Assembly: GCA_002343445.1 (NCBI GenBank)
Contig: DDSP01000049.1
Location: forward strand, 300 to 64,299
Direction: 5' to 3'
Source of the DNA: Chthonomonas sp. UBA2387
GTDB lineage: Bacteria; Armatimonadota; Fimbriimonadia; Fimbriimonadales; Fimbriimonadaceae
Length of the DNA: 64,000 nucleotides
This document shows positions 1,859 to 28,095 of this stretch, piece after piece; position 1 is the first letter of the stretch; every line of letters begins with the position of its first letter. The notes beneath the pieces are model-generated. The model was given only the letters and a program-made list of their open reading frames with translations. It was not told the DNA's origin and searched no databases. The position numbers and the translations under genes are program-made.

Positions 1859-1862
1859 CGGC

Positions 1863-1925: not shown

Positions 1926-1939
1926 CAGGGCATCGTTAG

Positions 1940-3274: not shown

Positions 3275-3324
3275 CCATTCGCGATCGTGCCCGGCGTTTC
3301 CTACCTCCGGGTAGCATCCCGGCC

Positions 3325-5426: not shown

Positions 5427-5561
5427 ATGGCGAAACGGCCGGGCATGATGGGCGCGAAAGGCAAGGTTTCCGAGGACGACGGCTCCTTCGACCGTGCGTT
5501 CTGGGCCGCCGCCACGCCCGAACAGAAGGTCCGCGCGATCTTCGAACTCCGAGAACTCTAA
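5427..5561 (+). CDS. Small hypothetical protein, possibly a truncated remnant
   Basis: MAKRPGMMGAKGKVSEDDGSFDRAFWAAATPEQKVRAIFELREL. A protein-like continuation (YEVMHPGTGAERLDR...) appears in another frame just after the stop, so it may be frameshifted. Confidence 0.3.
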   Translation: MAKRPGMMGAKGKVSEDDGSFDRAFWAAATPEQKVRAIFELREL

Positions 5562-5664
5562 TTACGAGGTGATGCACCCTGGCACCGGGGCTGAGCGGCT
5601 GGATCGAACTGTTGGCGGCACTCGACGACTCGGCGAGCCAGCGCCCGATCACGAGCGGTAAGGA

Positions 5665-6708: not shown

Positions 6709-6926
6709 CCCGCAATGTGCCTCGCCTGCGCCCGGGGCCTGGGGATTGCGACATTGCCGCCCCTCGCTTCTTCCAGCCAGAGCGAAATGCTGACCTCGAC
6801 GTCTCTCAACGCTTCCTCGGCCGTTGCGCCGCCTGCGGTGCAACCTGGCAAATCCGGCACATAGGCGCTCCAAGAACCGTCTTGGGCGTCCTCCGCGATC
6901 GCTAGGTACAAGACCTCGGTCGGCAT
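6705..6926 (-). CDS. HicB-like (UPF0150) antitoxin-family protein, N-terminal domain only
   Basis: 73 aa. YLAIAEDAQDGSWSAYVPDLPGCTAGGATAEEALRDVEVSISLWLEEARGGNVAIPRP matches the HicB N-domain pattern (vPdlPGc.t.G.T.eEal...). It has no C-terminal DNA-binding domain and there is no hicA nearby. Confidence 0.75.
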   Translation of the reverse strand: MPTEVLYLAIAEDAQDGSWSAYVPDLPGCTAGGATAEEALRDVEVSISLWLEEARGGNVAIPRPRAQARHIAG

Positions 6927-6939
6927 GACACCTCCACCA

Positions 6940-7611
6940 TCACTCGATGCCGCCGAAGTCCGCGTTCACCTCGTTCCGCTTGCCCGATTTGCCCATCAGC
7001 GACGTCTCGCCGTCTGCGGTCAGCTCCAGCCAGCCGCGATTGTCCGCTTCTGAATTCGGCGCCTTGAGCAGGGGCGACTCGGCGAACGGCTGCGCCACAT
7101 AGGCCATGTGCGCGTTCATCGCGGGCTCCTTGATCTCGAACACCAAGACGGTTTCAGCCTTGTCCGGCAGGTCGGCGAGCACCTTGCCCGCCACGTCCGA
7201 GTTGTATGCGATCCCCGAGATCAGCTTGCCGCCTTGCACGCAGCCCCACGGCTCGTCCGCCTTGGCCACGGCGATCTCGAAAAGCGGGTTCTCCATCTTC
7301 TCGGCCTTGGCCGTGACGTACTTCTCGTAGTACGGCTTCAACTCCACCTGCCATGTGTCGGCGGGCGGCAGCTTGCCGTCATGCTCCTTGGCATAGTCTT
7401 CGAGCCCCTGGTAGATGCCCTCGTAGGCGAGCAGGCAGCCGGTCATGGCCCCCACGCCTCCCGAGTTGAACATGTTTCGAACCGCGTTGGCGAAGTAGGC
7501 GAAGCCGCCGCAACAGATCACGACGACGCCGAGGATGACCCAGAGCCAAATCTTGGGCCCTTTCTTTCGCGGCTCGTCCGGCAACGGCTCGAAGGGAGGT
7601 GGCGTACTCAT
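6940..7611 (-). CDS. Membrane-anchored hypothetical protein
   Basis: 223 aa with a single N-terminal TM (IWLWVILGVVVICCGGFAYF). Ordinary, non-shadow composition. It ends 13 nt upstream of the hicB-like gene. Confidence 0.6.
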   Translation of the reverse strand: MSTPPPFEPLPDEPRKKGPKIWLWVILGVVVICCGGFAYFANAVRNMFNSGGVGAMTGCLLAYEGIYQGLEDYAKEHDGKLPPADTWQVELKPYYEKYVTAKAEKMENPLFEIAVAKADEPWGCVQGGKLISGIAYNSDVAGKVLADLPDKAETVLVFEIKEPAMNAHMAYVAQPFAESPLLKAPNSEADNRGWLELTADGETSLMGKSGKRNEVNADFGGIE

Positions 7612-7660
7612 TGGTGCTATTGTAACCAGAGAGGGCCTCGTTCGGGGCCATAAGTCCGGT

Positions 7661-9019
7661 ATGCCCGATCCGATGCTCGACCACCCGCGCGATCTGCCGC
7701 AGGTCTCGGCGCTTGCCCAAGACCCATGTTTGGCCGCCTATTCGGCCCGCGTGCGAACGGAAGCCGCCCGTTGCGCCATCGCCCGTGGGCGGGACGCATT
7801 GCTGTCTGGCAACCCCTTGTCGCGAGATGCGTTGCCCCAATGGGCCGCCGCAGAAGCCCGGCGCTTGGCCACCCCCTCGCTTCGGCCCGCGATCAACATG
7901 AGCGGCGTCGTGCTGCACACCGGCCTGGGTCGGGCTCGCCTCGCCACCGAGGCCGCAACGGCCGTCGCCGAGGTCGCCGCGAACCATTCCACTCTAGAAT
8001 TCGACCTAAAGGCCGGGGGCCGGGGCGACCGGCAGGCCCACGTCCGCGAATCGCTGTGCCGGCTGACGGACGCGGAAGACGCTTTGGTGGTCAACAACGC
8101 CGCCGCAGGCGTGGTGCTGGCCTTGGCGGCTCTGGCAGGAGGCAAGGACGTCGTGCTCTCCCGGGGAGAAATGGTCGAGATCGGCGGCAGCTTCCGCATG
8201 CCCGACATCGTCGGCGAGAGCGGAGCGGGCCTAAGCGAGGTGGGCTGCACCAACAAGACGCGTCTCAGCGATTACGCCTGCGCCATCACTCCTAACACGG
8301 CCGCGATTCTGCTTTGCCACCCGAGCAACTTCCACCTCGCGGGGTTCGTCGAGAAGCCGCCCATCGAAAAGGTCGCCGAACTCTGCCGCGAACGCGGCCT
8401 TTGGCTTGTGGACGACTTGGGTTCGGGATGCCTGTTCGACGCCGCCGAACTCGGCATCCGCCGGCAACCGACGATGGGGCAACGCGTGGCGTCGGGCGCG
8501 CACGTGGTCATCGGGAGCGGCGACAAACTGCTCGGTGGCCCGCAGGCGGGCCTGATGGTCGGCAGCAAGGAAGCCATCGAAACGTGCCGCAACCATCCGC
8601 TGGCCCGCGCGTTCCGCGTGGACAAACTGACGTTGGCTGCCCTCTCGGCGACGTTGCGGCTCTGGCTGGACGGACGGCGGGAGGCGATCCCCACCCTTCG
8701 GTATCTGGCTCGCCCCTTGCCCGAAGTTCGCCGCATGGCGACGAAGATCGCCAAGGCCTATCGTGGCGCGGCTGTGGTCGAGCGCGGCGAAACCGAGGTC
8801 GGCGGAGGTTCGTCTCCGGGCGAAGGCGTGCCGACGTTTCGGGCGGGGTTGACGACGGCTCGCGCCGATGCGTTGGCCGCATGGCTTCGGCAACGGACCC
8901 CTCCGGTCGTCGGGCGGATCGAGCGCGGGACCTTCTGGCTGGACCCCCGGACCGCCGAGCCCGACGAAGTGCGGGCCGTATGCCGTATCCTTTCCGAGGT
9001 GCCGAATGAGTATCTATGA
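7661..9019 (+). CDS. selA: L-seryl-tRNA(Sec) selenium transferase
   Basis: VNNAAAGVVLALAALAGGKDVVLSRGEMVEIGGSFRMPDIV...GCTNKTRLSDY...LLCHPSNF...GSGDKLLGGPQAGL is the SelA core, including the PLP-lysine region. The start is set at the ATG at 7661 because the track's 7535 start overlaps the divergent upstream gene. Confidence 0.85.
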   Translation: MPDPMLDHPRDLPQVSALAQDPCLAAYSARVRTEAARCAIARGRDALLSGNPLSRDALPQWAAAEARRLATPSLRPAINMSGVVLHTGLGRARLATEAATAVAEVAANHSTLEFDLKAGGRGDRQAHVRESLCRLTDAEDALVVNNAAAGVVLALAALAGGKDVVLSRGEMVEIGGSFRMPDIVGESGAGLSEVGCTNKTRLSDYACAITPNTAAILLCHPSNFHLAGFVEKPPIEKVAELCRERGLWLVDDLGSGCLFDAAELGIRRQPTMGQRVASGAHVVIGSGDKLLGGPQAGLMVGSKEAIETCRNHPLARAFRVDKLTLAALSATLRLWLDGRREAIPTLRYLARPLPEVRRMATKIAKAYRGAAVVERGETEVGGGSSPGEGVPTFRAGLTTARADALAAWLRQRTPPVVGRIERGTFWLDPRTAEPDEVRAVCRILSEVPNEYL

Positions 9020-9332
9020 TTGGTCGGGTGCGCGTCAGCGGCTCGCGGAGCTTGAAGCCGAGTCGCCCGGTTGGGCGTCTTTGGCCTCGATGACGATCGT
9101 GCTGGCCGTGGCGATGGCCGAGAGGCTGGGCGAAGACCTGGTCGCGGTTCGCGACGATGCGGCCCGCGCTTGCCTCGACGGCGGAGTGCCCGACACCGAG
9201 ACCGCCGCGTTCGCCTGCTCGATGGCGCAGGACGGCCTGCCGATGGAGTTTGCGGGTCAGGGCCGCTTGGCCGACGCCTACCGCGCCGTGCGGCCGCTGC
9301 TATCTCCCATACGGCACCCGCGCCATCTCTAG
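9006..9332 (+). CDS. Hypothetical protein overlapping the selA 3' end
   Basis: MSIYDWSGARQRLAELEAESPGW... (108 aa). The ATG at 9006 overlaps the selA stop region by 14 nt. No recognisable domain. Confidence 0.4.
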   Translation: MSIYDWSGARQRLAELEAESPGWASLASMTIVLAVAMAERLGEDLVAVRDDAARACLDGGVPDTETAAFACSMAQDGLPMEFAGQGRLADAYRAVRPLLSPIRHPRHL

Positions 9333-10303
9333 CCCCAGCGCTCGACCAACGCGTCCTGCAAGGCATCGGCGCGTTCGTCCACGCGTTGCCGGGCGGGGTC
9401 GGCGTCGTACCACGCCATGATCTCCCGCGCGCCTTGGCAGAAAGGAATGGACGCCCGCCAACCCGGAACCGCGCGCTTCACCTTCGTATTGTCGAACACC
9501 ATGCTGTTCGCCTTGTCCCCCAAGAGTCCCGGACCCCAGCCCGGATCGGCCTTGGCCAACGCGTCGGAGGGGACATGGACCTTGATGGCTTTCGTCCCAG
9601 CAGCGTCGGCGACGAGGTCGTAGATCTGGTTCCACGTCAGCCATTCGTCGGAGGTGATGTGGAACGCCTCGCCGATGGCGTGGCTGTTCCCCAACAACGG
9701 CACAAACGCCCGAGCGAAATCGGCGTGGTGGGTGAGCACCCAAAGCGACGTGCCGTCGCCATGCACCACCACAGGCTTGCCCCGACGCATGCGGTCCACC
9801 ACGGTCCAACCGTGATCGAACGGCAGGAGCGTCTGATCGTAGGTGTGCGACGGTCGGACGATCGTGTACGGGAAGCCGAATTCGCGGTAGGCGCGAACCA
9901 ACGCCTCTTCGCACGCGATCTTGTTGCGCGAATACTCCCAGTAAGGGTTTTGGAGCACGGTGGACTCGGTCACGGGCAGGCTCGAGGGCGGCGTCTGGTA
10001 GGCGCTCGCGCTGGAGATGAACACGAACTGCCGCGTGCGGTTGCGGAACACCTCGATGTCTTGGGCGATGTGGTCGGTGCCGAATGCGATCCAATCCACC
10101 ACGGCATCGAATTCCAAGTCGCCCAACGCCCGCTCGACGTCGGCCCGGTCGCGGATATCCGCCTGCAGCACCTGCGCGCCGGGCGGCACGGGCCGGTGCG
10201 AACGGCCCCGGTTGAGGAGATACAGGTCCATCCCCGATTCCAAAGCCAACGGAGAGCAAGCCGAGCTGATGATCCCGGTTCCGCCGATGAAGAGCACGCG
10301 CAT
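9329..10303 (-). CDS. NAD-dependent epimerase/dehydratase family (extended SDR) protein
   Basis: MRVLFIGGTGIISSACS is the Rossmann GxxGxxG motif. 324 aa with typical SDR length and layout. Confidence 0.85.
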   Translation of the reverse strand: MRVLFIGGTGIISSACSPLALESGMDLYLLNRGRSHRPVPPGAQVLQADIRDRADVERALGDLEFDAVVDWIAFGTDHIAQDIEVFRNRTRQFVFISSASAYQTPPSSLPVTESTVLQNPYWEYSRNKIACEEALVRAYREFGFPYTIVRPSHTYDQTLLPFDHGWTVVDRMRRGKPVVVHGDGTSLWVLTHHADFARAFVPLLGNSHAIGEAFHITSDEWLTWNQIYDLVADAAGTKAIKVHVPSDALAKADPGWGPGLLGDKANSMVFDNTKVKRAVPGWRASIPFCQGAREIMAWYDADPARQRVDERADALQDALVERWG

Positions 10304-10308
10304 GACCC

Positions 10309-11031
10309 GTGTTTACCCGCTGGTACGCTCTGACCATTGTGCCAAGCACCCCATCGCTGCGCATCGCAGAGGTTTTCGCCAGCATCCAGGGCGAGGGCCA
10401 ATGGGTCGGCGTGCCGTCCACGTTCATCCGCGTGAGCGGCTGCAACCTGCGTTGCGTCTGGTGCGATACGCCCTACGCGAGTTGGCGACCCGAGGGCCCC
10501 GTGGTCGACGTGACCGCGCTGGCCGACCGAGTGACGACCGATCACGTCGTCCTGACCGGCGGCGAACCGATGCTCTTCGATGCCATCGAACCGTTGGCGG
10601 GGCTGCTGCGCGAGCGGGGCAAGACGATCACCATCGAGACGGCGGGCACCATCCACCGCTCACTGCCCTGCGACTTGATGAGCATCTCGCCCAAACTGGC
10701 ACACTCCACACCCGGCCCCGAGGCGGGCGATTGGAGCGCGAGGCACGAGCGCGACCGACTCAACCTGGAGGCGTTGCGCCAGCTGACCCGCGATTACCAC
10801 CATCAACTCAAGTTCGTCGTGCGTGAGCCAGGCGACTTCGACGAGATCGAGGCGTTGTTGGAACAGATCGGCGGCATCACGCCGGGGAACGTGATGGTGA
10901 TGGCCGAGGGCACCGATGCCGACTCGGTGCGCGTGGCGATGCGTGAACTCGTCGAACCGTGTATGGCCCGAGGCTGGAGACTGACCCCCCGGTTGCACCT
11001 CGACCTGTTCGGCAACACCCGCGGCACTTAG
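10309..11031 (+). CDS. queE: 7-carboxy-7-deazaguanine synthase (radical SAM)
   Basis: IAEVFASIQGEGQWVGVPSTFIRVSGCNLRCVWCDTPYASW is the QueE signature, including the CxxxCxxC-type cluster motif. Confidence 0.85.
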   Translation: MFTRWYALTIVPSTPSLRIAEVFASIQGEGQWVGVPSTFIRVSGCNLRCVWCDTPYASWRPEGPVVDVTALADRVTTDHVVLTGGEPMLFDAIEPLAGLLRERGKTITIETAGTIHRSLPCDLMSISPKLAHSTPGPEAGDWSARHERDRLNLEALRQLTRDYHHQLKFVVREPGDFDEIEALLEQIGGITPGNVMVMAEGTDADSVRVAMRELVEPCMARGWRLTPRLHLDLFGNTRGT

Positions 11032-11060
11032 CCGGGACAGAAGGAGCGTGCCCGACGGGC

Positions 11061-11255
11061 TTACTCTGCCGAGTCGGCCTTCGTGGTCTTCTTCTTCGCG
11101 GGAGCCTTCTTGGCGGTCTCGGCCTTCTTTGGCGCGGCCTTCGGCTTGGAGGCCTTGGCTTCGGCGCTGGCGGCGATGGCCGTTCGCTTCAGGGCCTTGA
11201 TGGCTTGCTCTTTGCGATGGCGGCGCGTTCTCAGTTCTTTGTTGCGGATTCTCAC
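11061..11255 (-). CDS. Small Lys/Ala-rich basic protein (histone-H1-like tail)
   Basis: MRIRNKELRTRRHRKEQAIKALKRTAIAASAEAKASKPKAAPKKAETAKKAPAKKKTTKADSAE. Composition only, no family assignment. Confidence 0.45.
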   Translation of the reverse strand: MRIRNKELRTRRHRKEQAIKALKRTAIAASAEAKASKPKAAPKKAETAKKAPAKKKTTKADSAE

Positions 11256-11307
11256 AGTGGTGCGTCCTGTCGAAATGAAGAAGCCTTCCTTCTGGAAGGC
11301 GTATGCC

Positions 11308-12318
11308 CTAATGTACCCGCTCGTGAACGCGGGGAGCGTGCTCGGAAGCGAGTGCGCTCAGGTCGGCGCTCACGGGCAAGCGTGCTCCGAGGTGCGCCAC
11401 CACGCGCGCCGCACTCGCGACGGCCAACTTCGCCGCCTGATCGGGGTGCCAATCGCGCGCCAAGCCGTAGATCAAACCGGCCGAGAACATATCGCCCGCA
11501 CCCGTTCGATCCACTGCTCGAACCCTCGCAGCCGGGATTGATGCGACCGAACCCGCTGCGCCGACCAACGCCCCTTGGGAGCCGAGCGTCACTGCGGCGA
11601 TACGCCCACCTTCGGACAGCAGCGTGGCCGCCTCGTCCGCCGTCCCACACTCCGTGAGCAAGCAGGCTTCCTGCTCGTTCGCGATGACCACGTGGGCGTG
11701 CAGGGCGCAAAACTCGGCCAGCGGCTCGCGAAGGCGCTCGACCACCCCTGCATCGCAGAGCGACAATGCGATCCGCACCCCATTGGCCTGGGCATGCCGA
11801 ACCGCCGCGCGCGTCGCCGCATTCGGGCCGTTCTCGTCGAACAGGTAAGACGTCAGATACAGGAATCGGCTCTCAGCAAGATGGTTCAAATCGAGGTCCC
11901 GCTCGCCGAGGAGTGTGCTCGCGCCAAGATAGGTGACCATCGTGCGCTGGGCGTCGGGCGTGACCAGGACGATGCAGATGCCCGTCTCGGTGGGACTGGT
12001 TGGGAGGTTTGCGGTCACGCGGCGCGTCCGAAGACCTTCGGCGTACAAGCGCCCATGCTCGTCTTCGCCCACCCGTCCAGCGAACGCCGCCTTGCCGCCG
12101 AGTTGGACGATGCCGATCGCCGTGTTGGCACCCGAGCCACCCGACTCGGCGTTCACGATGTGCTCGTAAATGCGCGGCACCAAGGTGCGTTGAACCTCGT
12201 GGTCCACCATGTGCGCGCCACCCTTGGAAAAGCCGAGCGAGTGGAGAAGGTCGTCTCCCACCTCCGCCTGAATGTCATACAGCGGATTGCAGATCGAATA
12301 GAGATCGTAGGAGCCCAT
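11308..12318 (-). CDS. PfkB-family carbohydrate/adenosine kinase
   Basis: This is the real gene inside the composite 771-aa track ORF. The start is MGSYDLYSICNPLYDIQ (ATG at complement 12316-12318). The ESGGSGANTA and DRTGAGDMFSAGLIYGL (DTxGAGD) motifs are present. It neighbours metF and ahcY. Confidence 0.8.
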   Translation of the reverse strand: MGSYDLYSICNPLYDIQAEVGDDLLHSLGFSKGGAHMVDHEVQRTLVPRIYEHIVNAESGGSGANTAIGIVQLGGKAAFAGRVGEDEHGRLYAEGLRTRRVTANLPTSPTETGICIVLVTPDAQRTMVTYLGASTLLGERDLDLNHLAESRFLYLTSYLFDENGPNAATRAAVRHAQANGVRIALSLCDAGVVERLREPLAEFCALHAHVVIANEQEACLLTECGTADEAATLLSEGGRIAAVTLGSQGALVGAAGSVASIPAARVRAVDRTGAGDMFSAGLIYGLARDWHPDQAAKLAVASAARVVAHLGARLPVSADLSALASEHAPRVHERVH

Positions 12319-12419
12319 GGCACACGGACGGAACCACAAGAATTGCGGTTCTGAGGTCAATATTATGGCCGAGATCAGGACAATTCCAACGCCCCAAAGC
12401 TGAATAATGCGGATTCCCG

Positions 12420-14569
<2,150 letters not shown>

Positions 14570-14586
14570 TCTAGCCAGACTGTTGC

Positions 14587-14611
14587 TTGGAGGGCACGCT
14601 GTGTCGTGCCC
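14587..14611. repeat. REP-like hairpin unit (single, variant copy)
   Basis: ttggagggcacgctgtgtcgtgccc has the same architecture (GGAGGG, a 7-bp stem GGGCACG/CGTGCCC, and a loop) as the units at 1863, 28121 and 62381. It lies in the intergenic region after ahcY. Confidence 0.6.
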
Positions 14612-14666
14612 ACTGGCGTTGCCATAGCGGGACAGCAACCGACCAAGGCGTCTTGCAGTAATGTAA

Positions 14667-15983
14667 GTGATCATGGTCGCACTTGTGGCCCTCGTTCTGC
14701 TGGTTCAGACGCACGATGTCGTCGGTTCCTACCGAGCCGACATTGCCTCGGCTCCCAAGAAGTCGCGAGGCGTCTTTGAGGCGATCTACGGCAGCACGAT
14801 CCTGCGCATCGCACCCGACGGGACTTTTCAGAACTACATTGGTCACGAGTCTTGGGGCGGCTTCTGGCGACACGAAGGCGACCGCGTGATCCTGATCAAC
14901 CAGGGCTTCCTCACTATTCCCTTCCCAATCCCGGACGACGTGTTGCGGGCATCGACGCCCAAGAACCACGGGGAAGGTCTGCTATTGAGGGTGGGCGCAG
15001 GAGGCACACTGGTGCTCTCGGAATTCGGCGCAGTCACAGGTCCCTTGGTCTTCAGGATACTGCCCCGGCGCAGCACGCTCGAACTGCTGCGTCTCGCAAG
15101 TTCCGACGAGGTTACAGGCGAGAGCAGCGACGCTTACGAGACGCTCGTTGCGGATGCCTCGCGCGTGGACGAACTCCTAGGTTTCGTGAACGACGGGCGT
15201 CAATCGTTTGACATTCGCTTCTGGGCGGCGGCTGCAATGGACAGCGTGCGCGACGCTGCACAAATGCCCCGCTTGATGCCCTTCCTCCGAGATCTGAAGC
15301 AAGGGCGTCTTACCGAACGAGAACACACCTCGCTACGGAGATACATCTGGAATTGCCTTTGCAGACGCGCGACCGTTCCTATTGCCAGGGCCCTTCGGAG
15401 CGCCTCGACGGGGGCCCCGTACGAGCGTGCCAATCTAGCGCGGGCCTATGGCCGAGCACGGTTAGATGAAGGGCTGGCGGAGTTGACGGAGTGGCTGGGC
15501 GACGAGACCCCTTCGGTGCGCCGGGAGTCGTGCAACGCGCTACGCCTGCTGGCCGCTCGCGATCGTCTGCCCGAGTTGCGTCGGGTGCGCTCCGACCCGG
15601 ACGTCTCGGTGGCGGTCGCAGCGCACCACGCGGTCATCGCCCTTTCGCCCGACCCGGAGGAACGGGCTCATGCCGTTGCGGACGTGGCCAAGTTGCTCCG
15701 CGCCGACGCCTACCTTGAGCGCAGCGTGGTCGAGGCGATTGCCAGCGACCCGGTGGCAGGCGTTCCGCATCTGGCCAACCTGCTTGAGAACGACCCGGAT
15801 CTGGAGGTTCGTCGCTACGCGGTCGATCACCTTGGCGAAATCAGTTCTCCGGCCGCCATCCACGCCTTGATGATGGCAAATCCTGGCTCCTCGCCAGCGA
15901 CACGGAGCCGTACGAATTCGATCCGGACCCAGGGTTGCCCCGACGCCTCTGGGATGAGGGGCACAGGGAGTATGCCGAGTTGA
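14667..15983 (+). pseudogene. HEAT-repeat protein with N-terminal TM; probable frameshift near 15868
   Basis: HEAT-like repeats are present (PSVRRESCNALRLLA, DVSVAVAAHHAVIAL, DLEVRRYAVDHLGEISSPAAIHAL). After ...AIHALMM the frame reads as junk. The +1 frame continues protein-like (DDGKSWLLASDTEPYEFDPDPGLPRRLWDEGHREYAELRKALVEALWSLSKKRR*) to 16033. The switch point sits in the repeat tgatgatgg. Confidence 0.55.
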
Positions 15984-16087
15984 GGAAGGCGCTGGTCGAA
16001 GCGCTCTGGTCGCTCTCGAAGAAGCGCCGTTGACCCGAGCCCGAGTCAACTCACTTGACCGTCTAGGAGGGCGGTATCGTCAGGTAC

Positions 16088-16333
16088 ATGGTCACCATCT
16101 ATGTTGCCGAGCGTAGGGCCAACCTCCCTAAGTACTTGGAGATGGTGGCGCGCGGGGAGCGGGTGGTCATCTACGGCGGCAAGGTTCCGATCGCCGAGCT
16201 ACGCGCGACACAGCATTCGACGCACACCCAGCCACGCCAGTTCGGCTTTGCCGAAGGGTGGATATTGTCCGGGCTCGAGTCCTTGGACGAGCCCTGGACA
16301 GAGGAGGACCTGGGCTTGGAGATAGGGCTCTGA
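16088..16333 (+). CDS. Phd/YefM-like type II antitoxin-family protein (orphan)
   Basis: 81 aa. MVTIYVAERRANLPKYLEMVARGERVVIYGGKVPIAELR resembles the prevent-host-death antitoxin N-terminus. No toxin ORF follows, because the next gene is the convergent atpG. Confidence 0.5.
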   Translation: MVTIYVAERRANLPKYLEMVARGERVVIYGGKVPIAELRATQHSTHTQPRQFGFAEGWILSGLESLDEPWTEEDLGLEIGL

Positions 16334-16350
16334 ACAGCGGGCGTCTAGCC

Positions 16351-17211
16351 TCAGCCCTTGAGGGCTTCGGCGCCGCCGACCACTTCCAGGATTTCCTTGG
16401 TGATCGAGGCTTGCCGTTCGCGGTTCGCGCGCAACGTGAGCGAGTGGATCATCTTGCCCGCGTTGTCGGTCGCGCTGGTCATGGCCGTCATCCGCGAGCC
16501 ATGCTCCGAGGCCGTGGCCTCCAGCATCGCTTGCCAGACCACCGTGAGCAGGTAGCGGGGCAACAGTGCGCCCAGAATGGAAGCTGCTTCCGGCTCGAAC
16601 ACATAGTCCGAGGTACCCGAGACGCCTTCTTCCGCGGGCGGGGGCGTGATGGGCAGCAACTGCACCACCTGCGGCGTCTGCCGAATGGCAGAATAGAACT
16701 TGGAGTAAGCGACGTAGACCGCGTCCACCTCGCCCGACAGGAACATCTGCTTGCAGTGCTCGGCCACGGCCACGGCATCTTCCAGCCGAGCACCGGACGA
16801 AGGCACGGTCACGTTGAGCGACACAGCGTAGCCACGCTTCGAAAGGAACTGGTTCCCCTTCTTGCCCACGGTCACCAGGGTGGCGGCCTCGTTCTTGGAA
16901 CGAAGGAAGTCCCACGCCTTGCGGATGATGTTCGTGTTGTACGAACCCGCAAGGCCTCGATCGGAAGACAGGACGATGAGGGCGTACTTCTGAACGGGGC
17001 GGACCTGCATCAGCGGATCGCTCGGCAGCTCTCCGGCACGCGAGAGCGACGACATCAGGTCGTAAAGTTTCTCGCTGTAGGGACGTGCCTCCAAAACGCG
17101 GTCGGTCGCCTTCTTCAGGCGCGCCGCAGCCACCAGCTTCATCGCTTTCGTGATCTGCTGGATGTTCTTGGCGCTTCGGATGCGCGCGCGGATCTGCTTC
17201 AGTGAGGCCAT
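16351..17211 (-). CDS. atpG: F-type ATP synthase gamma subunit
   Basis: MASLKQIRARIRSAKNIQQITKAMKLVAAARL... and a C-terminal ITKEILEVVGGAEAL. Confidence 0.95.
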   Translation of the reverse strand: MASLKQIRARIRSAKNIQQITKAMKLVAAARLKKATDRVLEARPYSEKLYDLMSSLSRAGELPSDPLMQVRPVQKYALIVLSSDRGLAGSYNTNIIRKAWDFLRSKNEAATLVTVGKKGNQFLSKRGYAVSLNVTVPSSGARLEDAVAVAEHCKQMFLSGEVDAVYVAYSKFYSAIRQTPQVVQLLPITPPPAEEGVSGTSDYVFEPEAASILGALLPRYLLTVVWQAMLEATASEHGSRMTAMTSATDNAGKMIHSLTLRANRERQASITKEILEVVGGAEALKG

Positions 17212-21865: not shown

Positions 21866-24031
21866 ATGTCTACGTCTCCGGCCAAGCAAAGCCCGAAGTC
21901 GTTGGACGATCCCATCCAATTCGTCAAGGGGGTCGGACCCAACAAGGCGATGAAGCTCCGCAAGCTGGGGTTGCACACCGTGCGCGACGTGCTCTATCAC
22001 ATCCCTTGGCGGTACGAAGACCGGCGCAACCTGCCCGCGATCGGCGACCTGCGCGTCGGCCAAGAAGTCACGGTGCGCGGGCACGTGCTCTCGGTGGACG
22101 GTCGCCCCACGCGCGGCGGCATGCATCTGGTCAAAGCCACGCTCACCGATGGCACGGGCCAGGTCACGCTGGTCTGGTTCAACAAGCGTTGGCTCCACCA
22201 GGCCCTACAACGGCACGAGGAGATTCTCGCGTTTGGAACCGTCAAAGCGGCCAACTGGGGCGTGGAGATCCACTCGCCCGAATGGGAGCCCGTGGACGAA
22301 GACGAGGACGCCGAGGCGTTCGCGCGGCTGCTCCCCGTCTACAAACTGACCGAAGGCGTGGACCAACGGCTCGTTCGCTCAGCCGCAGAGCGGGTCGTCG
22401 AATCCTATGTGGACCTGGTGCAGGAGCCCATTCCCAAGTCCCTTCGCGATGCCCACGGCTTTCTAGGTCTGAAGTCGGCGCTCCGCCAAGTCCATCGCCC
22501 CGAGAACGAACACGAAGCGAAAGCCGGCCGCGACCGCCTGGTGTTCGAAGAATTCCTCGTCTCGCAACTGGCGCTCGCCATGCGCCGGGCAGAGATTCAA
22601 GCCGAGGTCGGCATTGCCTTCCCCATCTCCCAACTGACGGGGCGGGAGCGCACGTCGGGCACGCTGTTCGAGGAAAGGCACGCCGAAGAACCCGGCGACG
22701 AGGGCCCGCTCTGGGCCGAAGTCCACAAGATGCTCCCGTTCGAGTTGACCAACGCCCAGCGGCGCGTGATCGGCGAGATCTGGGGCGACATGGAACAGCC
22801 CCATCCCATGAACCGGCTGCTGCAAGGCGACGTGGGCTCGGGCAAAACCGCCGTCGCCGCCGCCGCGATCCTGGCCGCCGTCCGCTGCGGCTATCAGGCG
22901 GCCATCATGGCCCCGACCGAAATCCTCGCCGAGCAACACATCGCCTGTTTTAGGCAGTACTTCAACCCCGTGGGGATCGAAGTCGCTCTGCTGGTGGGCA
23001 AGCAAACCGCCGCCCAGAAGCGCAAACAGCGCGACCGGGTGGCTTCGGGCGAAGCCCGAGTGGCCGTCGGCACCCATGCCCTGATCCAAGAGAGCGTCCA
23101 GTTCCAGAAGCTCGGCCTGATCGTGGTGGACGAGCAACACCGGTTCGGCGTGCTTCAGCGCGCCACGCTGCACGAGAAGGGCTACGGCAACCCCGACGTG
23201 CTCGTCATGACGGCCACACCCATCCCGCGCACGCTCTCGATGACGCTCTACGGCGACATGGACACTTCGATCCTCGACGAGAAGCCCAAGGGCCGAAGGG
23301 AAATCAAGACGCATTGGAAACAACCCGGCGAACGCGAGGCCGTCTACGAACTGGTCCGGGAGTTCCTAGAGGCCGGCAAGCAGGCCTACTTCGTTTGCCC
23401 CCTGGTCGGCGAGTCCGAAAAGCTGACCGTGCAAGCCGCCGAAGACCTTTACTATCGGCTGTCCAAGGTCACCTACCCCGACCTGCGCGTGGGGATGCTG
23501 CACGGCCAGATGAAAAACTCCGAGAAGGAGGAGACGATGGAGCGGTTCCGTCGCGGCGAACTCGACATCCTGGTCAGCACCACCGTCATCGAAGTCGGCG
23601 TGGACGTCCCGAACGCGACGGTGATGGTCATCGAAGACGCCAACCGATTCGGGCTGGCGCAGCTGCACCAGTTGCGCGGACGCGTGGGCCGCGACGCCCA
23701 CCAATCGTATTGCATCCTGATCGGCGAAGCCACGACCGAGGACGCCCGCGAACGACTGAACGTGATGGTTTCGACGAACGACGGCTTCGAAATCGCTCGG
23801 AAGGACATGGAGATTCGCGGCCCCGGCGAAATCGCGGGCACGAAGCAGAGCGGAAACCTGGGATTCGAAATCGCCGACCTGCGGCGGGACGCGCACCTGC
23901 TGACCATCGCGAGACAGGCCGCGCTCGGCGTGATCGAGTCGGACCCCCGGCTGGAGCGATTCGAGCACTCGCGCCTATTGCCCCGTGTGCTGGAGCGCCG
24001 CACCCGCACGGCCCTAGTGCCGCAGGCGTAA
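21866..24031 (+). CDS. recG: ATP-dependent DNA helicase RecG
   Basis: PIQFVKGVGPNKAMKLRKLGLHTVRDVLYHIPWRYEDR is the wedge domain. Helicase motifs GDVGSGKT, VVDEQHRFG, MTATPIPRT and QLHQLRGRVGR are present. The start is set at the ATG at 21866. Confidence 0.95.
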   Translation: MSTSPAKQSPKSLDDPIQFVKGVGPNKAMKLRKLGLHTVRDVLYHIPWRYEDRRNLPAIGDLRVGQEVTVRGHVLSVDGRPTRGGMHLVKATLTDGTGQVTLVWFNKRWLHQALQRHEEILAFGTVKAANWGVEIHSPEWEPVDEDEDAEAFARLLPVYKLTEGVDQRLVRSAAERVVESYVDLVQEPIPKSLRDAHGFLGLKSALRQVHRPENEHEAKAGRDRLVFEEFLVSQLALAMRRAEIQAEVGIAFPISQLTGRERTSGTLFEERHAEEPGDEGPLWAEVHKMLPFELTNAQRRVIGEIWGDMEQPHPMNRLLQGDVGSGKTAVAAAAILAAVRCGYQAAIMAPTEILAEQHIACFRQYFNPVGIEVALLVGKQTAAQKRKQRDRVASGEARVAVGTHALIQESVQFQKLGLIVVDEQHRFGVLQRATLHEKGYGNPDVLVMTATPIPRTLSMTLYGDMDTSILDEKPKGRREIKTHWKQPGEREAVYELVREFLEAGKQAYFVCPLVGESEKLTVQAAEDLYYRLSKVTYPDLRVGMLHGQMKNSEKEETMERFRRGELDILVSTTVIEVGVDVPNATVMVIEDANRFGLAQLHQLRGRVGRDAHQSYCILIGEATTEDARERLNVMVSTNDGFEIARKDMEIRGPGEIAGTKQSGNLGFEIADLRRDAHLLTIARQAALGVIESDPRLERFEHSRLLPRVLERRTRTALVPQA

Positions 24032-24082
24032 CCAGGACCCTGTCAAGCAATTTGGAGGTGGATCCATACGATTCCTTGCCTT

Positions 24083-24288
24083 TTGGCGAAGGTTCCGTTG
24101 TATGATGGACACGGGAACATGATCGCGACGCTGACGAAAGGCTCGGGCGGGACGTACCAGGTCTCGGCCCGAAGGTACACGGACCCTTGGGGGGTCACGC
24201 GCGTCGGCGCGTCCGCCGGCTCGCCGGACCAGCGCTACTGCGCCAACCTGGGGCCCCGGCAGGACGACGAGAGTGGCCTGACGTACTG
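24083..24288 (+). pseudogene. RHS/YD-repeat core fragment fused upstream of the hsdM remnant
   Basis: YDGHGNMIATL...YTDPWGVTRV...YCANLGPRQDDESGLTYW reads like the last YD repeats of an RHS core. It is only about 68 aa, has no N-terminal body and no toxin tip, and continues in frame straight into HsdM sequence. Confidence 0.55.
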
Positions 24289-24943
24289 GAAGTACGGCAC
24301 CCCGCCCGCCAACAACGCGAACTTCGCCTGGATGCAGCACATGCTCCACCACCTCGCCCCGACGGGCTCGATGGCCCTGCTGCTGGCGAACGGCTCCATG
24401 GCCAGCAACGCGGGCGGCGACGGGAGGATTCGGAAGGCGTTGGTCGAAGCTGACGTGGTCGAGGCATCGTCGCTTTGCCGGGCCAGGTCTTTACCAAACG
24501 CCGCCTTCCACGCTTGCATTTGGTTCCTGGCCAAGAAGAGCAAGGGGCATCGCGCCGGGCGGATCCTTTTCATGGACGCCAGAGAGATGGGCTAAATGAA
24601 GGACCGGGTGCTACGCGACTTCCCGGCAAAGGACTTCGCCCAGATCGCCGACACCTCCCACCGCTGGCAATCCCCCTCCCCTGTTTCTCCCGAAATGGGG
24701 GAGCCGGCAGACGAGGACGTGGCCGGTTTCTTCAAGTCGGCGATGCTAGAAGAGGTGCGGCGGCACGACTTCGTGTTGACGCCGGGGCGATACGTAGGCG
24801 CGGGAGCCGCTTCGGAAGGGGAAGAGCCGTTCGAGAAGAAGTTTGCTTGGCTGAGCAAGCAACTTGAGGAGCATCTCACCGAGTCGGACCGGCTTCAAGT
24901 GGTCATTCGGGGCAACCCGACTAGAGTGAGGAGCCGAGTATGA
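24286..24943 (+). pseudogene. hsdM: Type I restriction-modification methyltransferase (HsdM) remnant: 5'-truncated, with frameshifts and a nonsense codon
   Basis: WKYGTPPANNANFAWMQHMLHHLAPTGSMALLLANGSMASN..GDGRIRKALVEADVV matches the HsdM C-terminal half. VALPGQVFT is readable only in the +2 frame (about 24466-24497), and the frame then returns at AAFHACIWFLAKK...ILFMDAREMG. A TAA stop at 24593-24595 is followed by the HsdM tail (DFAQIADTSHRW...FVLTPGRYVG). The catalytic N-terminal half is absent. Confidence 0.75.
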
Positions 24944-25776
24944 GCAAGTCGGCAAATCCAGTCGCCTCTGTCGAGACCAACCTCGACCAATACCGTGCCG
25001 ACCTAAAGGCTCTCGTCGAAAGAGGTGAACTTCTCCTTCACTCGTTGTGCGCTAAATATGTCCCAGAGCAGTTTGATGCCGCCTACAAGAAGGCTGGAAC
25101 TGATGTCAAGGCATATCGAGCCCAGTTGCCCCCGTTCAAGACTGCGTACCAAGCCTGGTATTCGGAGGCACTCGCTCTCATTCGACAGTTGCTCCCTGAT
25201 AGGGTCGCTGACTTCGAGCAGCACTACAAGAAGCCAAAGACCCGCAAGGGCATCACCTTCGAGAACTATCGAATCGAAGATGCACTCCAAGGCCTGACCG
25301 TAACAAGGACAGCGCTTCAGGAGAAAGTGGTAGGGCCCGACGCTGCGATACCGCATGTCGAGCAGCAGTTGGCCATCCTAAGAGCGGTTGAGCGTCGATT
25401 TGAGAGTTCGCTCTTCGACATCCGTCAACTGGTGCAAGCAGACCTCTTCGACTCGGAACTCGATGCAGCTCGTGAACTGCTGAAGAGTGGCTTCGGACGA
25501 GCTGCTGGCGCAGTCTCTGGTGTTGTTCTGGAGAGACACCTGGGTCAGGTGGCACAGAATCATCAACTGGTCACTCGGAAGGCTCACCCGACCATCAGCG
25601 ACTTCAACGACCTCTTGAAGACTAGCAACGTGCTGGATGTGCCAGCCTGGCGACAGGTACAAAGGCTGGGGGACCTGCGCAACCTCTGCGACCACAACAA
25701 GCACCGGGACCCAACAAATGAGGAGGTCGAGGAGCTCATCTCTGGAATTGAAAAACTCACGAAGACGCTCTTCTAG
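24940..25776 (+). CDS. Uncharacterised protein with a C-terminal HEPN-like domain (RNxxxH motif)
   Basis: 278 aa and all-helical by eye. The C-terminal part reads AAGAVSGVVLERHLGQV...ISDFNDLLKTSNVLDVPAWRQVQRLGDLRNLCDHNKHRDPTNEEVEELISGIEKL. It contains R-N-L-C-D-H (nt 25678-25695), which fits the HEPN Rx4-6H signature. GAGGAG lies 6 nt before the ATG, and the ATG overlaps the hsdM-remnant stop (ATGA). Local GC is low. Confidence 0.7.
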   Translation: MSKSANPVASVETNLDQYRADLKALVERGELLLHSLCAKYVPEQFDAAYKKAGTDVKAYRAQLPPFKTAYQAWYSEALALIRQLLPDRVADFEQHYKKPKTRKGITFENYRIEDALQGLTVTRTALQEKVVGPDAAIPHVEQQLAILRAVERRFESSLFDIRQLVQADLFDSELDAARELLKSGFGRAAGAVSGVVLERHLGQVAQNHQLVTRKAHPTISDFNDLLKTSNVLDVPAWRQVQRLGDLRNLCDHNKHRDPTNEEVEELISGIEKLTKTLF

Positions 25777-25791
25777 TCAGAAGCAATCACT

Positions 25792-26061
25792 ATGAATACA
25801 TACAGAGCTATTGTTCGATTCAGCCTTGACGGAGATGACGGAACCTACACCACTAAGTTCCGAAGTCGTTTTCAGGTACTTGGCTTTCAGAAAATCGGCA
25901 CCTCGACTTGGAACAATGACACCTTGCCTGAAGCCAACCTGGCCCAACTCGCCGACCTGCTGCGCGACATAACCAACGTGTCCGGCATCTCCGCGGGCAA
26001 AGTAAAGCTCGACCATATCTGGAGCTACGTAGACATCCCACACTCTGGAGCGAAGATTTAG
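25792..26061 (+). CDS. Small (89 aa) uncharacterised protein, middle gene of the cassette
   Basis: MNTYRAIVRFSLDGDDGTYTTKFRSRFQVLGFQKIGTSTWNNDTLPEANLAQLADLLRDITNV...KLDHIWSYVD. It is co-directional with 15-nt and 9-nt gaps to its neighbours. I preferred it over the antisense 134-aa ORF (25777-26181), which would overlap the HNH gene start. Confidence 0.55.
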   Translation: MNTYRAIVRFSLDGDDGTYTTKFRSRFQVLGFQKIGTSTWNNDTLPEANLAQLADLLRDITNVSGISAGKVKLDHIWSYVDIPHSGAKI

Positions 26062-26070
26062 GCTGAACCA

Positions 26071-26964
26071 ATGGCAATCTCCCAGAGCATAAGGAATCGG
26101 CTCCTCGTTGAGGCGGGGCATCGGTGCACCGTCTGCTCCGAGAAGGCCTATGAGCTTCACCACATCGTGGAGCAGGCTCAAGGCGGCGATGACTCGGAGG
26201 AGAACCTGATTGTCCTATGCCCCAACTGTCACCAGCAGCGAGTCCACCGGAACAAGGAGTTCACGCCGGTCCAATTGCGCGCGTACAAGGCGAACCTTAA
26301 GGAGCGGAAGGAGTTCGAGCGAAGACTTGCACAGAACCTTGAGCATATCCGTCTGCTCTTGGACCAAGAGGGTCCACAGGCCGCGGAAGCTGCTCTACGC
26401 AAGGAGATGTCCGATGCCGCCTCGGTCGTGGACCCAGAACGGTCGCCAAGTGCCTACGAGGAGGTTTCCAAGACTGCCCGGTGGCTGGCGGAGCGACAGG
26501 AGTTTAAGGCAGGTGCACGCGAGGCGCTCGAAATCGAGTGCGACATCGACATCCAGCGTGAGCTTGCTAAATGGAAGTCCATCTCGATAGTGGCGGTAGA
26601 TGAAGACGGCTGGAAAAAGCACGACAAGTTCCCAGCCAGCTACACGTTCGTGGTCAAGCTCAGCGCTTCACCCTATACGGCATGGCGCGAAGTCTTCAAC
26701 AACCAGTGGCACAACTCATTCTATTCGATGAAGCGCGAAACTCATTTACAAGGGGACCGAATCGTCATGATTGTCGCCGACTCTGACAACCTCCAGAACC
26801 ACCTCGACCACCTGAAGCAACTCGTCGAGTGGACGAACCGACACATTGAGGAGCACGTTGAGCGAAGGGTCAAGCCCGACTTGGAGCGGCAGCGTCGTCA
26901 GGTGCTGCACGAGTTCGACACCATCGAGTCTCTCAAAGGCAAGGTCAAGGAGCTGAAACTCTGA
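26071..26964 (+). CDS. HNH endonuclease domain protein with a ~200-aa uncharacterised C-terminal domain
   Basis: The N-terminus GHRCTVCSEKAYELHHIVEQAQGGDDSEENLIVLCPNCHQQRVH is the full HNH/zinc-ribbon signature (CxxC...HH...N...CxxCH). The remainder (coiled-coil linker plus SISIVAVDEDGWKKHDKFPASYTFVVKLS...) has no motif I recognise. Confidence 0.8.
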   Translation: MAISQSIRNRLLVEAGHRCTVCSEKAYELHHIVEQAQGGDDSEENLIVLCPNCHQQRVHRNKEFTPVQLRAYKANLKERKEFERRLAQNLEHIRLLLDQEGPQAAEAALRKEMSDAASVVDPERSPSAYEEVSKTARWLAERQEFKAGAREALEIECDIDIQRELAKWKSISIVAVDEDGWKKHDKFPASYTFVVKLSASPYTAWREVFNNQWHNSFYSMKRETHLQGDRIVMIVADSDNLQNHLDHLKQLVEWTNRHIEEHVERRVKPDLERQRRQVLHEFDTIESLKGKVKELKL

Positions 26965-26980
26965 TCGATTGGCCGCTGTA

Positions 26981-27030
26981 TCCTCTTTCCTCTTTCCTCT
27001 TCCTTCGTCCCTTTTCCAACTTCCTTTCCC
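26981..27030. repeat. Polypyrimidine (CT-rich) low-complexity tract at the island's right edge
   Basis: tcctctttcctctttcctcttccttcgtcccttttccaacttcctttccc lies between the HNH gene stop and the rlmN stop. It reads as GGAAG-type polypurine on the rlmN strand. Confidence 0.7.
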
Positions 27031-28095
27031 TCAGCGCACCCCGACCGGCACGCCGCGCTTGGCAAAGCGGCCGACATGCTCGCCCGCCAACTGGCCACAA
27101 GCCGCCGCGATGTCGTGGCCGCGCTCGACCCGCTGCGTCACCGTGACCCCCGCCGATTCCAACACGCCTCGAAAGGCCCGAATCCGGTTGGCGCTCGGGC
27201 GGCTGAAGCCTTGCTCGGTGTCCACATAGTTGAACGGGATCAGGTTGACGATGCACGGAAAGCCGCGCACCAGCCGGGACATCGCTGCGGCGTCTTCGGT
27301 CGAGTCGTTCACGTCGGCGATCAGGAGCACTTCGAACGTCACCTTGCGGCCCGTGGCCTTCTGGTGGGCGCGCATCGCCGCAACCACTTCGGCCACCGGC
27401 CACTTCTTGTTGACCGGCATCAGCCGCTCGCGCACCTCGTCCCGCGCGGCGTGCAGCGATAGGGCCAGGTGGATCGGCAGCCCCGTCTGCGAGAGCCTGC
27501 GGATCTGAGGGACCAACCCAACGGTGGAAACCGTGATGTGCCGCAAGCTCAAGCCGACCTCGTCGTGGAGCAATCCGATGGCCTTCAGCACATTGTCCAG
27601 GTTCAGCAGCGGCTCGCCCATGCCCATGAACACCACGTGGCCGATGCGGCGGGTCGTCAGGCGCTGGAGCAGCAGGTACTGCCCCACGATCTCGGCGGCC
27701 GAGAGGTTGCGGTCGAAGCCGCCCAGGCCCGTCGCGCAAAACGTGCAACCCATCGGGCAACCGACCTGGGAACTCAGGCAGCAGCTCACGCGGTCCTCGT
27801 AGGGCAACAACACGCACTCGTACACTTGGCCGTCGCCCCGATGCACGAGCAGCTTCTCGACCCCGTCGCTGGACTTGGCATGGCGGGCCACGGTCAGCGG
27901 ATCCACGGTGAACGCTTCGGCAAGTTCGGCCCGAAGGGTGGCCGGCAGGTCGCGCATGGCGTCGAAGTCGGCGACGGCTTTGCCGTACACCCACTTGGCG
28001 ATCTGCTTGGCGCGCCAACGGGCGTCTTCGCGCGGGGCGAGACGTTCGGCGATCTCTTGGGCGGTCAGCCCGACCAGCGGGACGCGGGAGTCCAC
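27031..28095 (-). CDS. rlmN: 23S rRNA/tRNA (adenine-C2)-methyltransferase, radical SAM
   Basis: This is the real gene inside the composite 596-aa track ORF. Motifs: SSQVGCPMGCTFCATG, VVFMGMGEPLLN, LALSLHA, NLIPFN and AACGQL. The start is assigned to the GTG at complement 28093-28095 (VDSRVPLVGLTAQEI...) and is uncertain. Confidence 0.9.
   Translation of the reverse strand: MDSRVPLVGLTAQEIAERLAPREDARWRAKQIAKWVYGKAVADFDAMRDLPATLRAELAEAFTVDPLTVARHAKSSDGVEKLLVHRGDGQVYECVLLPYEDRVSCCLSSQVGCPMGCTFCATGLGGFDRNLSAAEIVGQYLLLQRLTTRRIGHVVFMGMGEPLLNLDNVLKAIGLLHDEVGLSLRHITVSTVGLVPQIRRLSQTGLPIHLALSLHAARDEVRERLMPVNKKWPVAEVVAAMRAHQKATGRKVTFEVLLIADVNDSTEDAAAMSRLVRGFPCIVNLIPFNYVDTEQGFSRPSANRIRAFRGVLESAGVTVTQRVERGHDIAAACGQLAGEHVGRFAKRGVPVGVR

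Follow-up and report, generated by a model that had tools for sequence, protein, structure and literature searches.

We analysed a stretch of 64,000 nucleotides from Chthonomonas sp. UBA2387 (contig DDSP01000049.1), in the following called the window, and in it a patch of three adjacent genes that encode a HEPN-fold protein of 278 amino acids (gene 1), a protein of 89 amino acids (gene 2) and an HNH nuclease of 297 amino acids (gene 3). A previous sequence-only reading had proposed that these genes form one defence cassette. The co-occurrence check did not bear this out, as homologues of the three genes do not co-occur. The locus is probably a chance grouping of independent mobile defence genes in the cargo slot of a decayed type I restriction-modification (R-M) locus and not a three-gene system. 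On sequence grounds the host chromosome belongs to the Armatimonadota, near Fimbriimonadaceae; the members of the 90% identity cluster of its AtpA protein are named Fimbriimonadaceae or Chthonomonas.

The patch consists of three intact open reading frames on the plus strand, separated by 15 nt and then by 9 nt, exactly as they had been described. Its features are listed below.

24940 to 25776, plus strand: gene 1, HEPN-fold protein (278 amino acids) with an N-terminal domain of helices and a beta-hairpin (approximately amino acids 1-170) and a C-terminal HEPN domain (approximately amino acids 173-278)
25678 to 25695, plus strand: R-N-L-C-D-H, the Rx4H signature of HEPN RNases (R247-H252), invariant in the alignment
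25792 to 26061, plus strand: gene 2 (89 amino acids according to the family alignment), a cargo gene and not a conserved partner of gene 1 or gene 3
26071 to 26964, plus strand: gene 3, HNH nuclease (297 amino acids) with the HNH domain at amino acids 1-60, long helices at 66-166, a small alpha/beta part at 173-236 and a long helix at 241-293
26125 to 26241, plus strand: beta-beta-alpha-metal core of the HNH domain (amino acids 19-57; Pfam PF01844) with CxxC, HH, N and CxxCH

The neighbourhoods of gene 1 and gene 3 homologues were compared in two censuses. The gene 1 census comprised 82 non-redundant loci that represent more than 15 phyla (80 genome loci, each taken with flanks of at most 10 kb per side, plus look-ups), and the gene 3 census comprised 34 metagenome loci and eight look-ups, approximately 40 loci. 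A relative of gene 3 was detected by tblastn in a single one of the 82 gene 1 loci, L001, where four genes lie between the two. Gene 1 was found in none of the approximately 40 gene 3 loci except the L001 contig, and gene 2 was found in no other gene 1 or gene 3 locus by either tblastn or profile search. No conserved neighbour of gene 1 was observed, since no family of open reading frames within 5 kb was present in more than 7 of the 82 loci. The 148 immediate neighbours of gene 1, assigned with Pfam and PADLOC, were heterogeneous. They included oxidoreductases, a tRNA synthetase and a chaperonin as well as three integrases, two IS200 transposases and two HsdM proteins. An HsdM gene immediately precedes gene 1 in L001 and L076, and in L028 one lies 2 kb downstream of gene 1. 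Gene 3 also had no conserved neighbour among the loci examined. Its neighbours included DNA methylases and other R-M genes, GajA/GajB, PIN, MazF, TIR, GmrSD, toxin-antitoxin genes, a HEPN protein of the Ymh family, transposases and housekeeping genes, and hsdM adjoined gene 3 in 3 of approximately 28 loci with usable flanks.

The arrangement in the window became understandable by comparison with a series of sister islands. The gene orders are as follows, with genes without a name given as numbers.

L001: hsdM, gene 1, 333, 126, 79, RhuM, gene 3, hsdS, further genes, TIR; gene 3 is 94% and gene 1 is 84% identical to the window
L122, L127 and L128: hsdM, 334, 106, (DUF1508), gene 3, hsdS, TIR, further genes; gene 3 is 91-92% identical
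L129-131 and L161: TIR, 225, ThsB_TIR, gene 3, hsdS, TIR, AbiJ, SIR2, further genes; gene 3 is 86-92% identical
Window: pseudo-hsdM, gene 1, gene 2, gene 3, end of the island

Near-identical copies of gene 3 (86-94%) occur in at least four island variants, and in all three variants outside the window gene 3 is located directly 5' of hsdS. Gene 1, where present in the sister islands, is located directly 3' of hsdM with overlapping stop and start codons. The cargo between hsdM and gene 3 differs from island to island and consists of gene 1, RhuM, TIR/ThsB or DUF1508. The window and L001 are homologous at the DNA level only over positions 24287-25774 and 26071-26965. The match stops where gene 1 ends, starts again with gene 3 (87.5% DNA identity over 26071-26965) and ends one base past the gene 3 stop codon. 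This gap in homology between gene 1 and gene 3 indicates that exchangeable cargo is located there. In the window rlmN is reached 66 nt after gene 3; hsdS and everything beyond it have been lost. Seen via the sister islands, the setting is indeed a defence island, as had been suggested, and it is built on a decayed type I R-M locus.

The sister islands themselves (L001, positions 1-20837; L122, positions 1-16894; L127; L129) are large type I R-M mosaics; 5' of hsdM they begin with genes for an integrase, HTH and resolvase. Behind hsdS they carry TIR_2, AbiJ (AbiJ_NTD3 and Abi_C), SIR2_2, DUF6508, HamA with a DEAD helicase (Hachiman-like), DUF6009, DUF3644 and AAA_13 genes; in L122 the AbiJ, SIR2 and HamA/helicase genes follow the TIR gene. 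No hsdR was found within 8-10 kb in these islands.

The hsdM gene of the window is a remnant.

24287 to 24943, plus strand: decayed hsdM, of which approximately the C-terminal 40% is left, with a frameshift at 24595/24596

Its earlier description as a decayed type I methylase was correct. Only the distal part of the N6_Mtase profile is left (total span 149-309), and profile positions 149-248 and 253-309 fall in two open reading frames in two different frames (Pfam). The PADLOC model MTase_I matches the remnant at 4e-27 and 2e-16. The remnant corresponds approximately to residues 331-538 of the intact HsdM of L001 (546 amino acids), to which it is 48-57% identical at the amino acid level, and the N-terminal approximately 330 residues are gone. 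The stop codon of the pseudogene overlaps the start codon of gene 1 as ATGA (gtATGAgc), with a GAGGAG motif 6 nt upstream, and the same overlap of hsdM and gene 1 is found in L001. Neither hsdS nor hsdR follows gene 3 in the window. A functional type I R-M system at this place is ruled out, as hsdM is truncated and frameshifted and hsdS and hsdR are absent 3' of gene 3.

The HEPN motif pointed out in the sequence-only reading withstood alignment of the gene 1 family. All six residues of R247-N-L-C-D-H252 (nt 25678-25695) are invariant in 27 diverse homologues, and consequently the motif is not a chance Rx4H. In the same alignment, which has a mean column identity of 73%, D245 and E198 (located in the first helix of the C-terminal domain) are invariant as well. 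The window protein itself gave no match in Pfam, NCBIfam, PADLOC (E<=1) or PHROGs. When the 27 relatives were scanned singly, PF05168 was detected in 22 of them (best E 6.7e-5), DUF4145 (PF13643) in five and RiboL-PSP-HEPN in five. A tblastn search of plasmids with gene 1 retrieved RefSeq DUF4145/HEPN proteins of 25-33% identity (E 7e-11 to 3e-10). The AlphaFold2 model of gene 1 has a mean predicted local distance difference test score (pLDDT) of 83.7. Its C-terminal part is a four-helix bundle (residues 186-207, 219-228, 234-252 and 260-276) in which the Rx4H motif is located at the end of helix 234-252. In the structure check with Foldseek, HEPN domains headed the list, and the top PDB matches were all HEPN proteins (2hsb, 5yep, the HepT structures 7bxo/6m6u, 1o3u and 1wol). 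These matches had probabilities of 0.92-1.0 and target template modelling scores of 0.5-0.69 with E-values of only 0.3-1.2, which are weak because the query was the full-length protein. The HEPN fold of gene 1 is thus supported by the invariant motif, the Pfam matches of its relatives, the annotated homologues and the AlphaFold2/Foldseek comparison. For the N-terminal part (approximately 170 residues, helices and a beta-hairpin) neither Foldseek nor profile scans nor BFVD gave a match. A sequence search of the PDB with gene 1 yielded only spurious matches, for example ubiquitin, and the BFVD fold search with gene 1 yielded nothing meaningful.

The gene 1 family comprises more than 4,493 clusters at 90% identity, with 62-70% identity across phyla that include Proteobacteria, Bacteroidota, Omnitrophota, Campylobacterota, Acidobacteriota, Chloroflexota, Cyanobacteriota and Patescibacteria, among others. 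Its distribution is patchy: a search of 185,579 species genomes confirmed at least 209 hits, and the search pattern makes this count a lower bound. Judged from these comparisons, gene 1 represents a very large, conserved and solitary HEPN family for which no Pfam or PADLOC model exists. The family had no match in the sequenced phage genomes of INPHARED. Relatives of 38-54% identity were observed on 24 predicted viral contigs of IMG/VR (L132-L155), often less than 1 kb from the contig end. This position suggests cargo at prophage edges or, alternatively, prophage boundaries that were set wrongly. By analogy with known HEPN proteins, gene 1 most likely encodes a stand-alone RNase of the abortive-infection or toxin type.

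Gene 3 contains the complete HNH motif that had been read from its sequence (C19xxC22, H30H31, N45/N52 and C50xxCH54), and PF01844 was matched with an E-value of 5.9e-10 and 39.6 bits (cutoff 21.4 bits). The family alignment shows no variation at C19, C22, H30, H31, N45, C50, N52, C53 and H54, and conservation extends to the C-terminal two-thirds of the protein. The family consists of approximately 110 clusters, nearly all of exactly 297 amino acids, with 41-92% identity. The earlier statement that the C-terminal region could not be assigned held as well, since neither profile nor structure searches assigned a family to these approximately 230 residues. The AlphaFold2 model of gene 3 (pLDDT 81.5) was compared with known structures by Foldseek. 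In this comparison and in profile searches of the PDB, McrA, IscB, the Cap5 protein of the cyclic oligonucleotide-based antiphage signalling system (CBASS) and Cas-HNH fusions matched only the HNH domain and the beginning of the linker. The HNH domain superposes on McrA, Cap5 and IscB at 2.7-3.5 A over approximately 75-109 residues and resembles the HNH domains of group II intron maturases and IscB. A sequence search of the PDB also gave matches to the HNH part only. Gene 3 had no match in the sequenced phage genomes of INPHARED.

Several assignments of gene 3 to known nucleases were tried and rejected. A Cap5 protein would carry a SAVED domain, which gene 3 lacks. For the best-scoring Cap5 chains the superposition is limited to the first 104-109 residues, and longer alignments to other Cap5 chains have a root-mean-square deviation of approximately 17 A. 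The SAVED_HNH models of PADLOC match gene 3 weakly and only at residues 37-95, in the N-terminal third near the HNH core, and no CD-NTase or cyclase gene was found in the window or in the sister islands. For IscB, the NCBIfam model guided_IscB scored 48 bits against a cutoff of 175 bits and in the HNH segment only, and no RuvC or PLMP domain is present. The match to TIGR-TasH had an E-value of 0.042, and neither a Nop domain nor a guide array was found. Repeat arrays beside gene 3 were detected neither in the window nor consistently in 37 loci. Gene 3 is most likely a predicted stand-alone HNH DNase of defence islands. A homologue of 47% identity was observed in an independent island (L100, positions 5689-15012) with the order hsdS, hsdM, 421, gene 3, GajA, GajB, in which the Gabija pair was identified with E-values down to 1e-279 for GajA and 6e-258 for GajB.

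Gene 2 is indeed a small protein, and a family of proteins of approximately 80 amino acids was found for it. A word-indexed search in 5.8e9 proteins detected one close homologue with 55% identity. An exhaustive search gave 68 representatives of approximately 80 amino acids at E<=1e-3 that share the motifs RAIxRFSLDGD, GFxxIGT and LDHLWxYxD. In public gene calls the protein is either 45 amino acids (TTG start at codon 45) or 89 amino acids long, and the family alignment supports 89. Direct scans of gene 2 against Pfam, PADLOC, NCBIfam and PHROGs gave no match, and no match was found on plasmids. A profile of gene 2 detected no further relative among all open reading frames in 1.6 Mb of fetched loci. 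The protein probably has a ferredoxin-like alpha/beta fold. Weak Cas2-like signals were obtained, namely PF09827 in 2 of 39 relatives (E 0.01) and a profile match to PDB entry 3exc (E 0.028). The closest homologue (L125) adjoins a divergent membrane-protein gene read as lgt and has an 84-amino-acid gene downstream; no relative of gene 1 or gene 3 was found near it. This downstream gene (positions 822-1076) encodes a lysine- and alanine-rich protein (GRKGGLKGGKARAEKLTPEQRSEIAKKAAAKRW) that has no counterpart in the window and may be a small nucleic-acid-binding partner.

The ratios of nonsynonymous to synonymous substitution rates (dN/dS) were 0.076 for gene 1, 0.05-0.06 for gene 3 and 0.19 for gene 2. 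Such low values indicate that all three genes are under purifying selection. The dip in GC content reported for the patch is real. However, it is milder than the previous counts of single 60-nt lines suggested: in 500-nt windows the GC content was 0.54-0.58 in the patch versus 0.63-0.68 in the flanks. The individual values were 0.55 for gene 1, 0.51 for gene 2 and 0.57 for gene 3, compared with 0.65 for recG and 0.68 for rlmN. That these two core genes border the patch, as the sequence-only reading had stated, was seen in their translations. The gene recG is co-directional and ends 52 nt upstream of the patch, and rlmN is encoded on the minus strand with its 3' end starting from 27031. No internal terminator or promoter-like site was found among genes 1-3. 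No promoter-like site was found in 23900-27200 either, in a scan for the sigma-70 consensus only, which may not suit Armatimonadota. In the window the three genes probably share a transcript, which may come from read-through of recG. Two further features were annotated.

24083 to 24289, plus strand: N-terminal part of the first pseudo-open reading frame, RHS/YD-like by eye only, without DNA homology to the sister islands
26965 to 27030, no strand assigned: right-hand end of the island; the sister islands have hsdS here, and the window goes straight into the 3' end of rlmN

The stretch from 24083 to 24289 had been called an RHS fragment. Its 69 codons are in frame with the hsdM remnant and contain the YD-like motifs YDGHGN, YTDPWG and DDESGLTYW. 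Pfam and NCBIfam gave no match even at E<=10, and the assignment was not sustained. The homology to L001 begins only at 24287, i.e. after the RHS-like stretch. The spacer of 66 nt between the gene 3 stop codon and rlmN is pyrimidine-rich and contains a perfect threefold TCCTCTT repeat at 26981-27001. A search for flanking direct repeats or att-like sites at the island boundaries revealed only repeats at chance level.

In the explanation that we favour, comparison with the intact sister islands shows that the stretch from hsdM to hsdS is a cargo slot whose content is swapped by recombination. In the window, deletions took away the 5' 60% of hsdM as well as hsdS and all that followed it, and gene 2, a different cargo gene, fills the middle. 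With cargo exchange and island decay, the tight packing of genes 1, 2 and 3 would be accidental and not that of a co-evolved operon. We propose that the three genes do not depend on each other in function. By analogy with RAZR/PD-T7-4, Ishtar, BxaP and the HEPN genes embedded in R-M loci, gene 1 would be a conditional RNase that works on its own. Its HEPN domains would dimerise and form a composite Rx4H site, and the N-terminal domain might serve as a sensor or auto-inhibitor until a phage or mobile-element trigger appears. Gene 3 would act alone as a DNase, with the coiled coil and the alpha/beta module used for oligomerisation and/or sensing, and gene 2 would be an unrelated small protein.

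Some observations weigh against this explanation. Genes 1 and 3 share an island both in the window and in L001. In L024 (positions 2491-4033), from a metagenome-assembled genome of Bacteroidales, a different, frameshifted HNH gene is located 69 nt upstream of the gene 1 homologue. This gene (2491-2691 and 2646-3167) has an N-terminus like that of gene 3, with HHIxEQAxGG...CxNCH. HEPN and HNH genes may therefore have a loose functional affinity. Furthermore, the clustering of neighbouring open reading frames was based on crude gene calls, and many of the gene 3 contigs are short. The neighbourhoods of gene 1 are mostly housekeeping and not defence, and its very high conservation is unusual for fast-evolving immune genes. 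The putative defence role of gene 1 is based on the fold of the protein, on the patchy occurrence of the family and on sporadic links to R-M genes, integrases and viral contigs. Another adjacency was observed in L123 (positions 8001-9732), where, 80 nt behind a gene 3 homologue, a 252-amino-acid protein of the Ymh family (PF09509), a different HEPN family, is encoded. Altogether, HEPN-HNH adjacencies are three or four sporadic cases in approximately 120 loci and fit a general gathering of HEPN and DNase genes in defence islands (PMC3710099), not a dedicated system.

A dedicated system of genes 1-3, in which a small adaptor would couple the HEPN RNase to the HNH DNase, is extremely improbable. 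It would agree with the co-direction of the genes, the 15-nt and 9-nt gaps, the lack of internal terminator or promoter-like sites, the intactness of all three genes under purifying selection and the common island of genes 1 and 3 in L001. Yet four unrelated genes part genes 1 and 3 in L001, and gene 2 is absent from this island as from every other gene 1 or gene 3 locus. Moreover, 81 of the 82 gene 1 loci are without gene 3, the other gene 3 loci are without gene 1, and near-identical copies of gene 3 have TIR/ThsB or DUF1508 upstream instead. It is also unlikely that genes 1 and 3 are guards of the R-M system in the manner of PrrC or Ronin, which HsdMS would silence and phage anti-restriction would release, so that the window would contain orphaned guards. 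R-M genes do not adjoin most members of the two families (HsdM is encoded just upstream of gene 1 in 2 of approximately 82 loci and nearby in a third; it is beside gene 3 in 3 of approximately 28), and the ATPase and membrane modules of PrrC and RonA are missing from both proteins. In addition, genes 1 and 3 have stayed intact despite a dead hsdM and a missing hsdS, a state that does not fit well with effectors silenced by HsdMS. The points that speak for guards are the ATGA overlap of hsdM and gene 1 in the window and L001, the position of gene 3 directly 5' of hsdS in the island variants and beside hsdS-hsdM in the 47%-identical L100 locus, and the precedents PrrC-EcoPrrI (PMC3710099) and Ronin (bioRxiv 10.1101/2023.04.06.535777). 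A bolder version, to which we give a small chance, regards gene 1 as a so far unrecognised and very widespread RNase of immunity or abortive infection that needs no other gene and has a new sensor domain at its N-terminus. Within this lineage of islands, gene 1 would additionally guard type I R-M jointly with the hsdS-linked HNH protein, and an attack on HsdMS would set free the RNA and the DNA effector at the same time.

Genes 1 and/or 3 could also be non-immune, either as selfish or addiction elements (a solitary toxin, a homing-type HNH) or as hitch-hiking RNA- or DNA-processing enzymes. The unusual conservation of gene 1 (62-70% between phyla), its mostly housekeeping neighbours, the lack of PADLOC matches for gene 1 and gene 2 and the domain-level similarity of the gene 3 HNH to group II intron maturases and IscB are in line with this. 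We consider it rather improbable nonetheless. Gene 1 is patchy (at least 209 hits in 185,579 species genomes) and occasionally linked to R-M genes, integrases and viral contigs, and the neighbours of gene 3 include R-M, Gabija, TIR, toxin-antitoxin and GmrSD genes. Furthermore, no intron, insertion sequence, RNA partner or repeat arrays were seen, and neither family occurs in the INPHARED phages. Finally, the patch might be a dying remnant whose three open reading frames are no longer expressed or functional and persist only since the deletion is recent. The truncated and frameshifted hsdM, the loss of hsdS and the downstream genes and the lack of a promoter-like site in 23900-27200 would fit such a state. 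All three open reading frames are, however, full length relative to their families, and the low dN/dS argues for function until at least recently. The co-directional recG 52 nt upstream could supply transcription, and the promoter scan covered the sigma-70 consensus only, which may not suit Armatimonadota. We therefore judge a dying remnant to be very unlikely.

As a proposed three-gene system the locus is not borne out, and no new system should be defined from it. Taken by itself, the gene 1 family is a reasonable candidate for a single-gene defence or toxin, and gene 3 represents a length-invariant HNH family that recurs in defence islands and beside hsdS. In the islands associated with Armatimonadota, the series clearly shows that defence cargo is swapped in and out between hsdM and hsdS. 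Genome scans should take note that genes which are closely spaced and co-directional in a decaying island are poor evidence of one system.

In PADLOC, gene 1 and gene 2 had no match, gene 3 had the weak SAVED_HNH match and the hsdM remnant matched MTase_I. Among the closest known systems, CBASS Cap5 and the type IV restriction enzymes of the McrA type share with gene 3 the N-terminal HNH core followed by a helical linker and the location in defence islands. Gene 3 differs from them by the absence of SAVED, SRA or any other known sensor, in place of which it has a coiled coil and an alpha/beta part of approximately 60 amino acids without a significant match; in contrast to CBASS Cap5, no CD-NTase gene is located near it. 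The single-gene HEPN/DUF4145 defence proteins RAZR/PD-T7-4 (PMC13017515), Ishtar (bioRxiv 10.64898/2026.07.06.735840) and BxaP (PMC10799925) are precedents for gene 1. Like RAZR, Ishtar1/2 and BxaP, gene 1 combines in one polypeptide a family-specific non-catalytic domain with a DUF4145-like HEPN domain with conserved R and H, and it is patchy and horizontally spread. Compared with RAZR/PD-T7-4, its N-terminus is helical without a Cys4 zinc finger and it has no PADLOC match at E<=1. The HEPN domain is N-terminal in Ishtar and BxaP, whereas it is C-terminal in gene 1.

HEPN genes in R-M loci have been described before: at least 16 HEPN clades are linked to R-M systems, with PrrC in the hsdMSR locus of EcoPrrI as the prototype (Anantharaman et al. 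2013, PMC3710099). Gene 1 resembles these as an Rx4H protein in a type I R-M locus directly after hsdM, and the same slot of L001 contains RhuM and other toxin-like cargo. It differs from PrrC and RloC in its size of 278 amino acids and in the absence of an ABC or Rad50-like ATPase domain (Pfam, NCBIfam). Its family is overwhelmingly R-M-independent, and the R-M locus is decayed here. A RonA-type membrane effector is absent and the HsdMS partners are lost in the window, but with the Ronin 'decoy' HsdMS the locus shares accessory effectors linked to hsdM/hsdS, and here the content between hsdM and hsdS varies among near-identical islands. Proteins in which HEPN is fused to HNH or to another DNase domain have been on record since 2013 (PMC3710099). 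The sequence-only reading knew of no named system that combines HEPN and HNH effectors with a small adaptor-like protein. With both the R-M links and the HEPN-HNH/DNase fusions already published in that year, the pairing is not new in kind (PMC3710099), and genes 1 and 3 are uncharacterised representatives of known kinds, in a context whose type is known as well.

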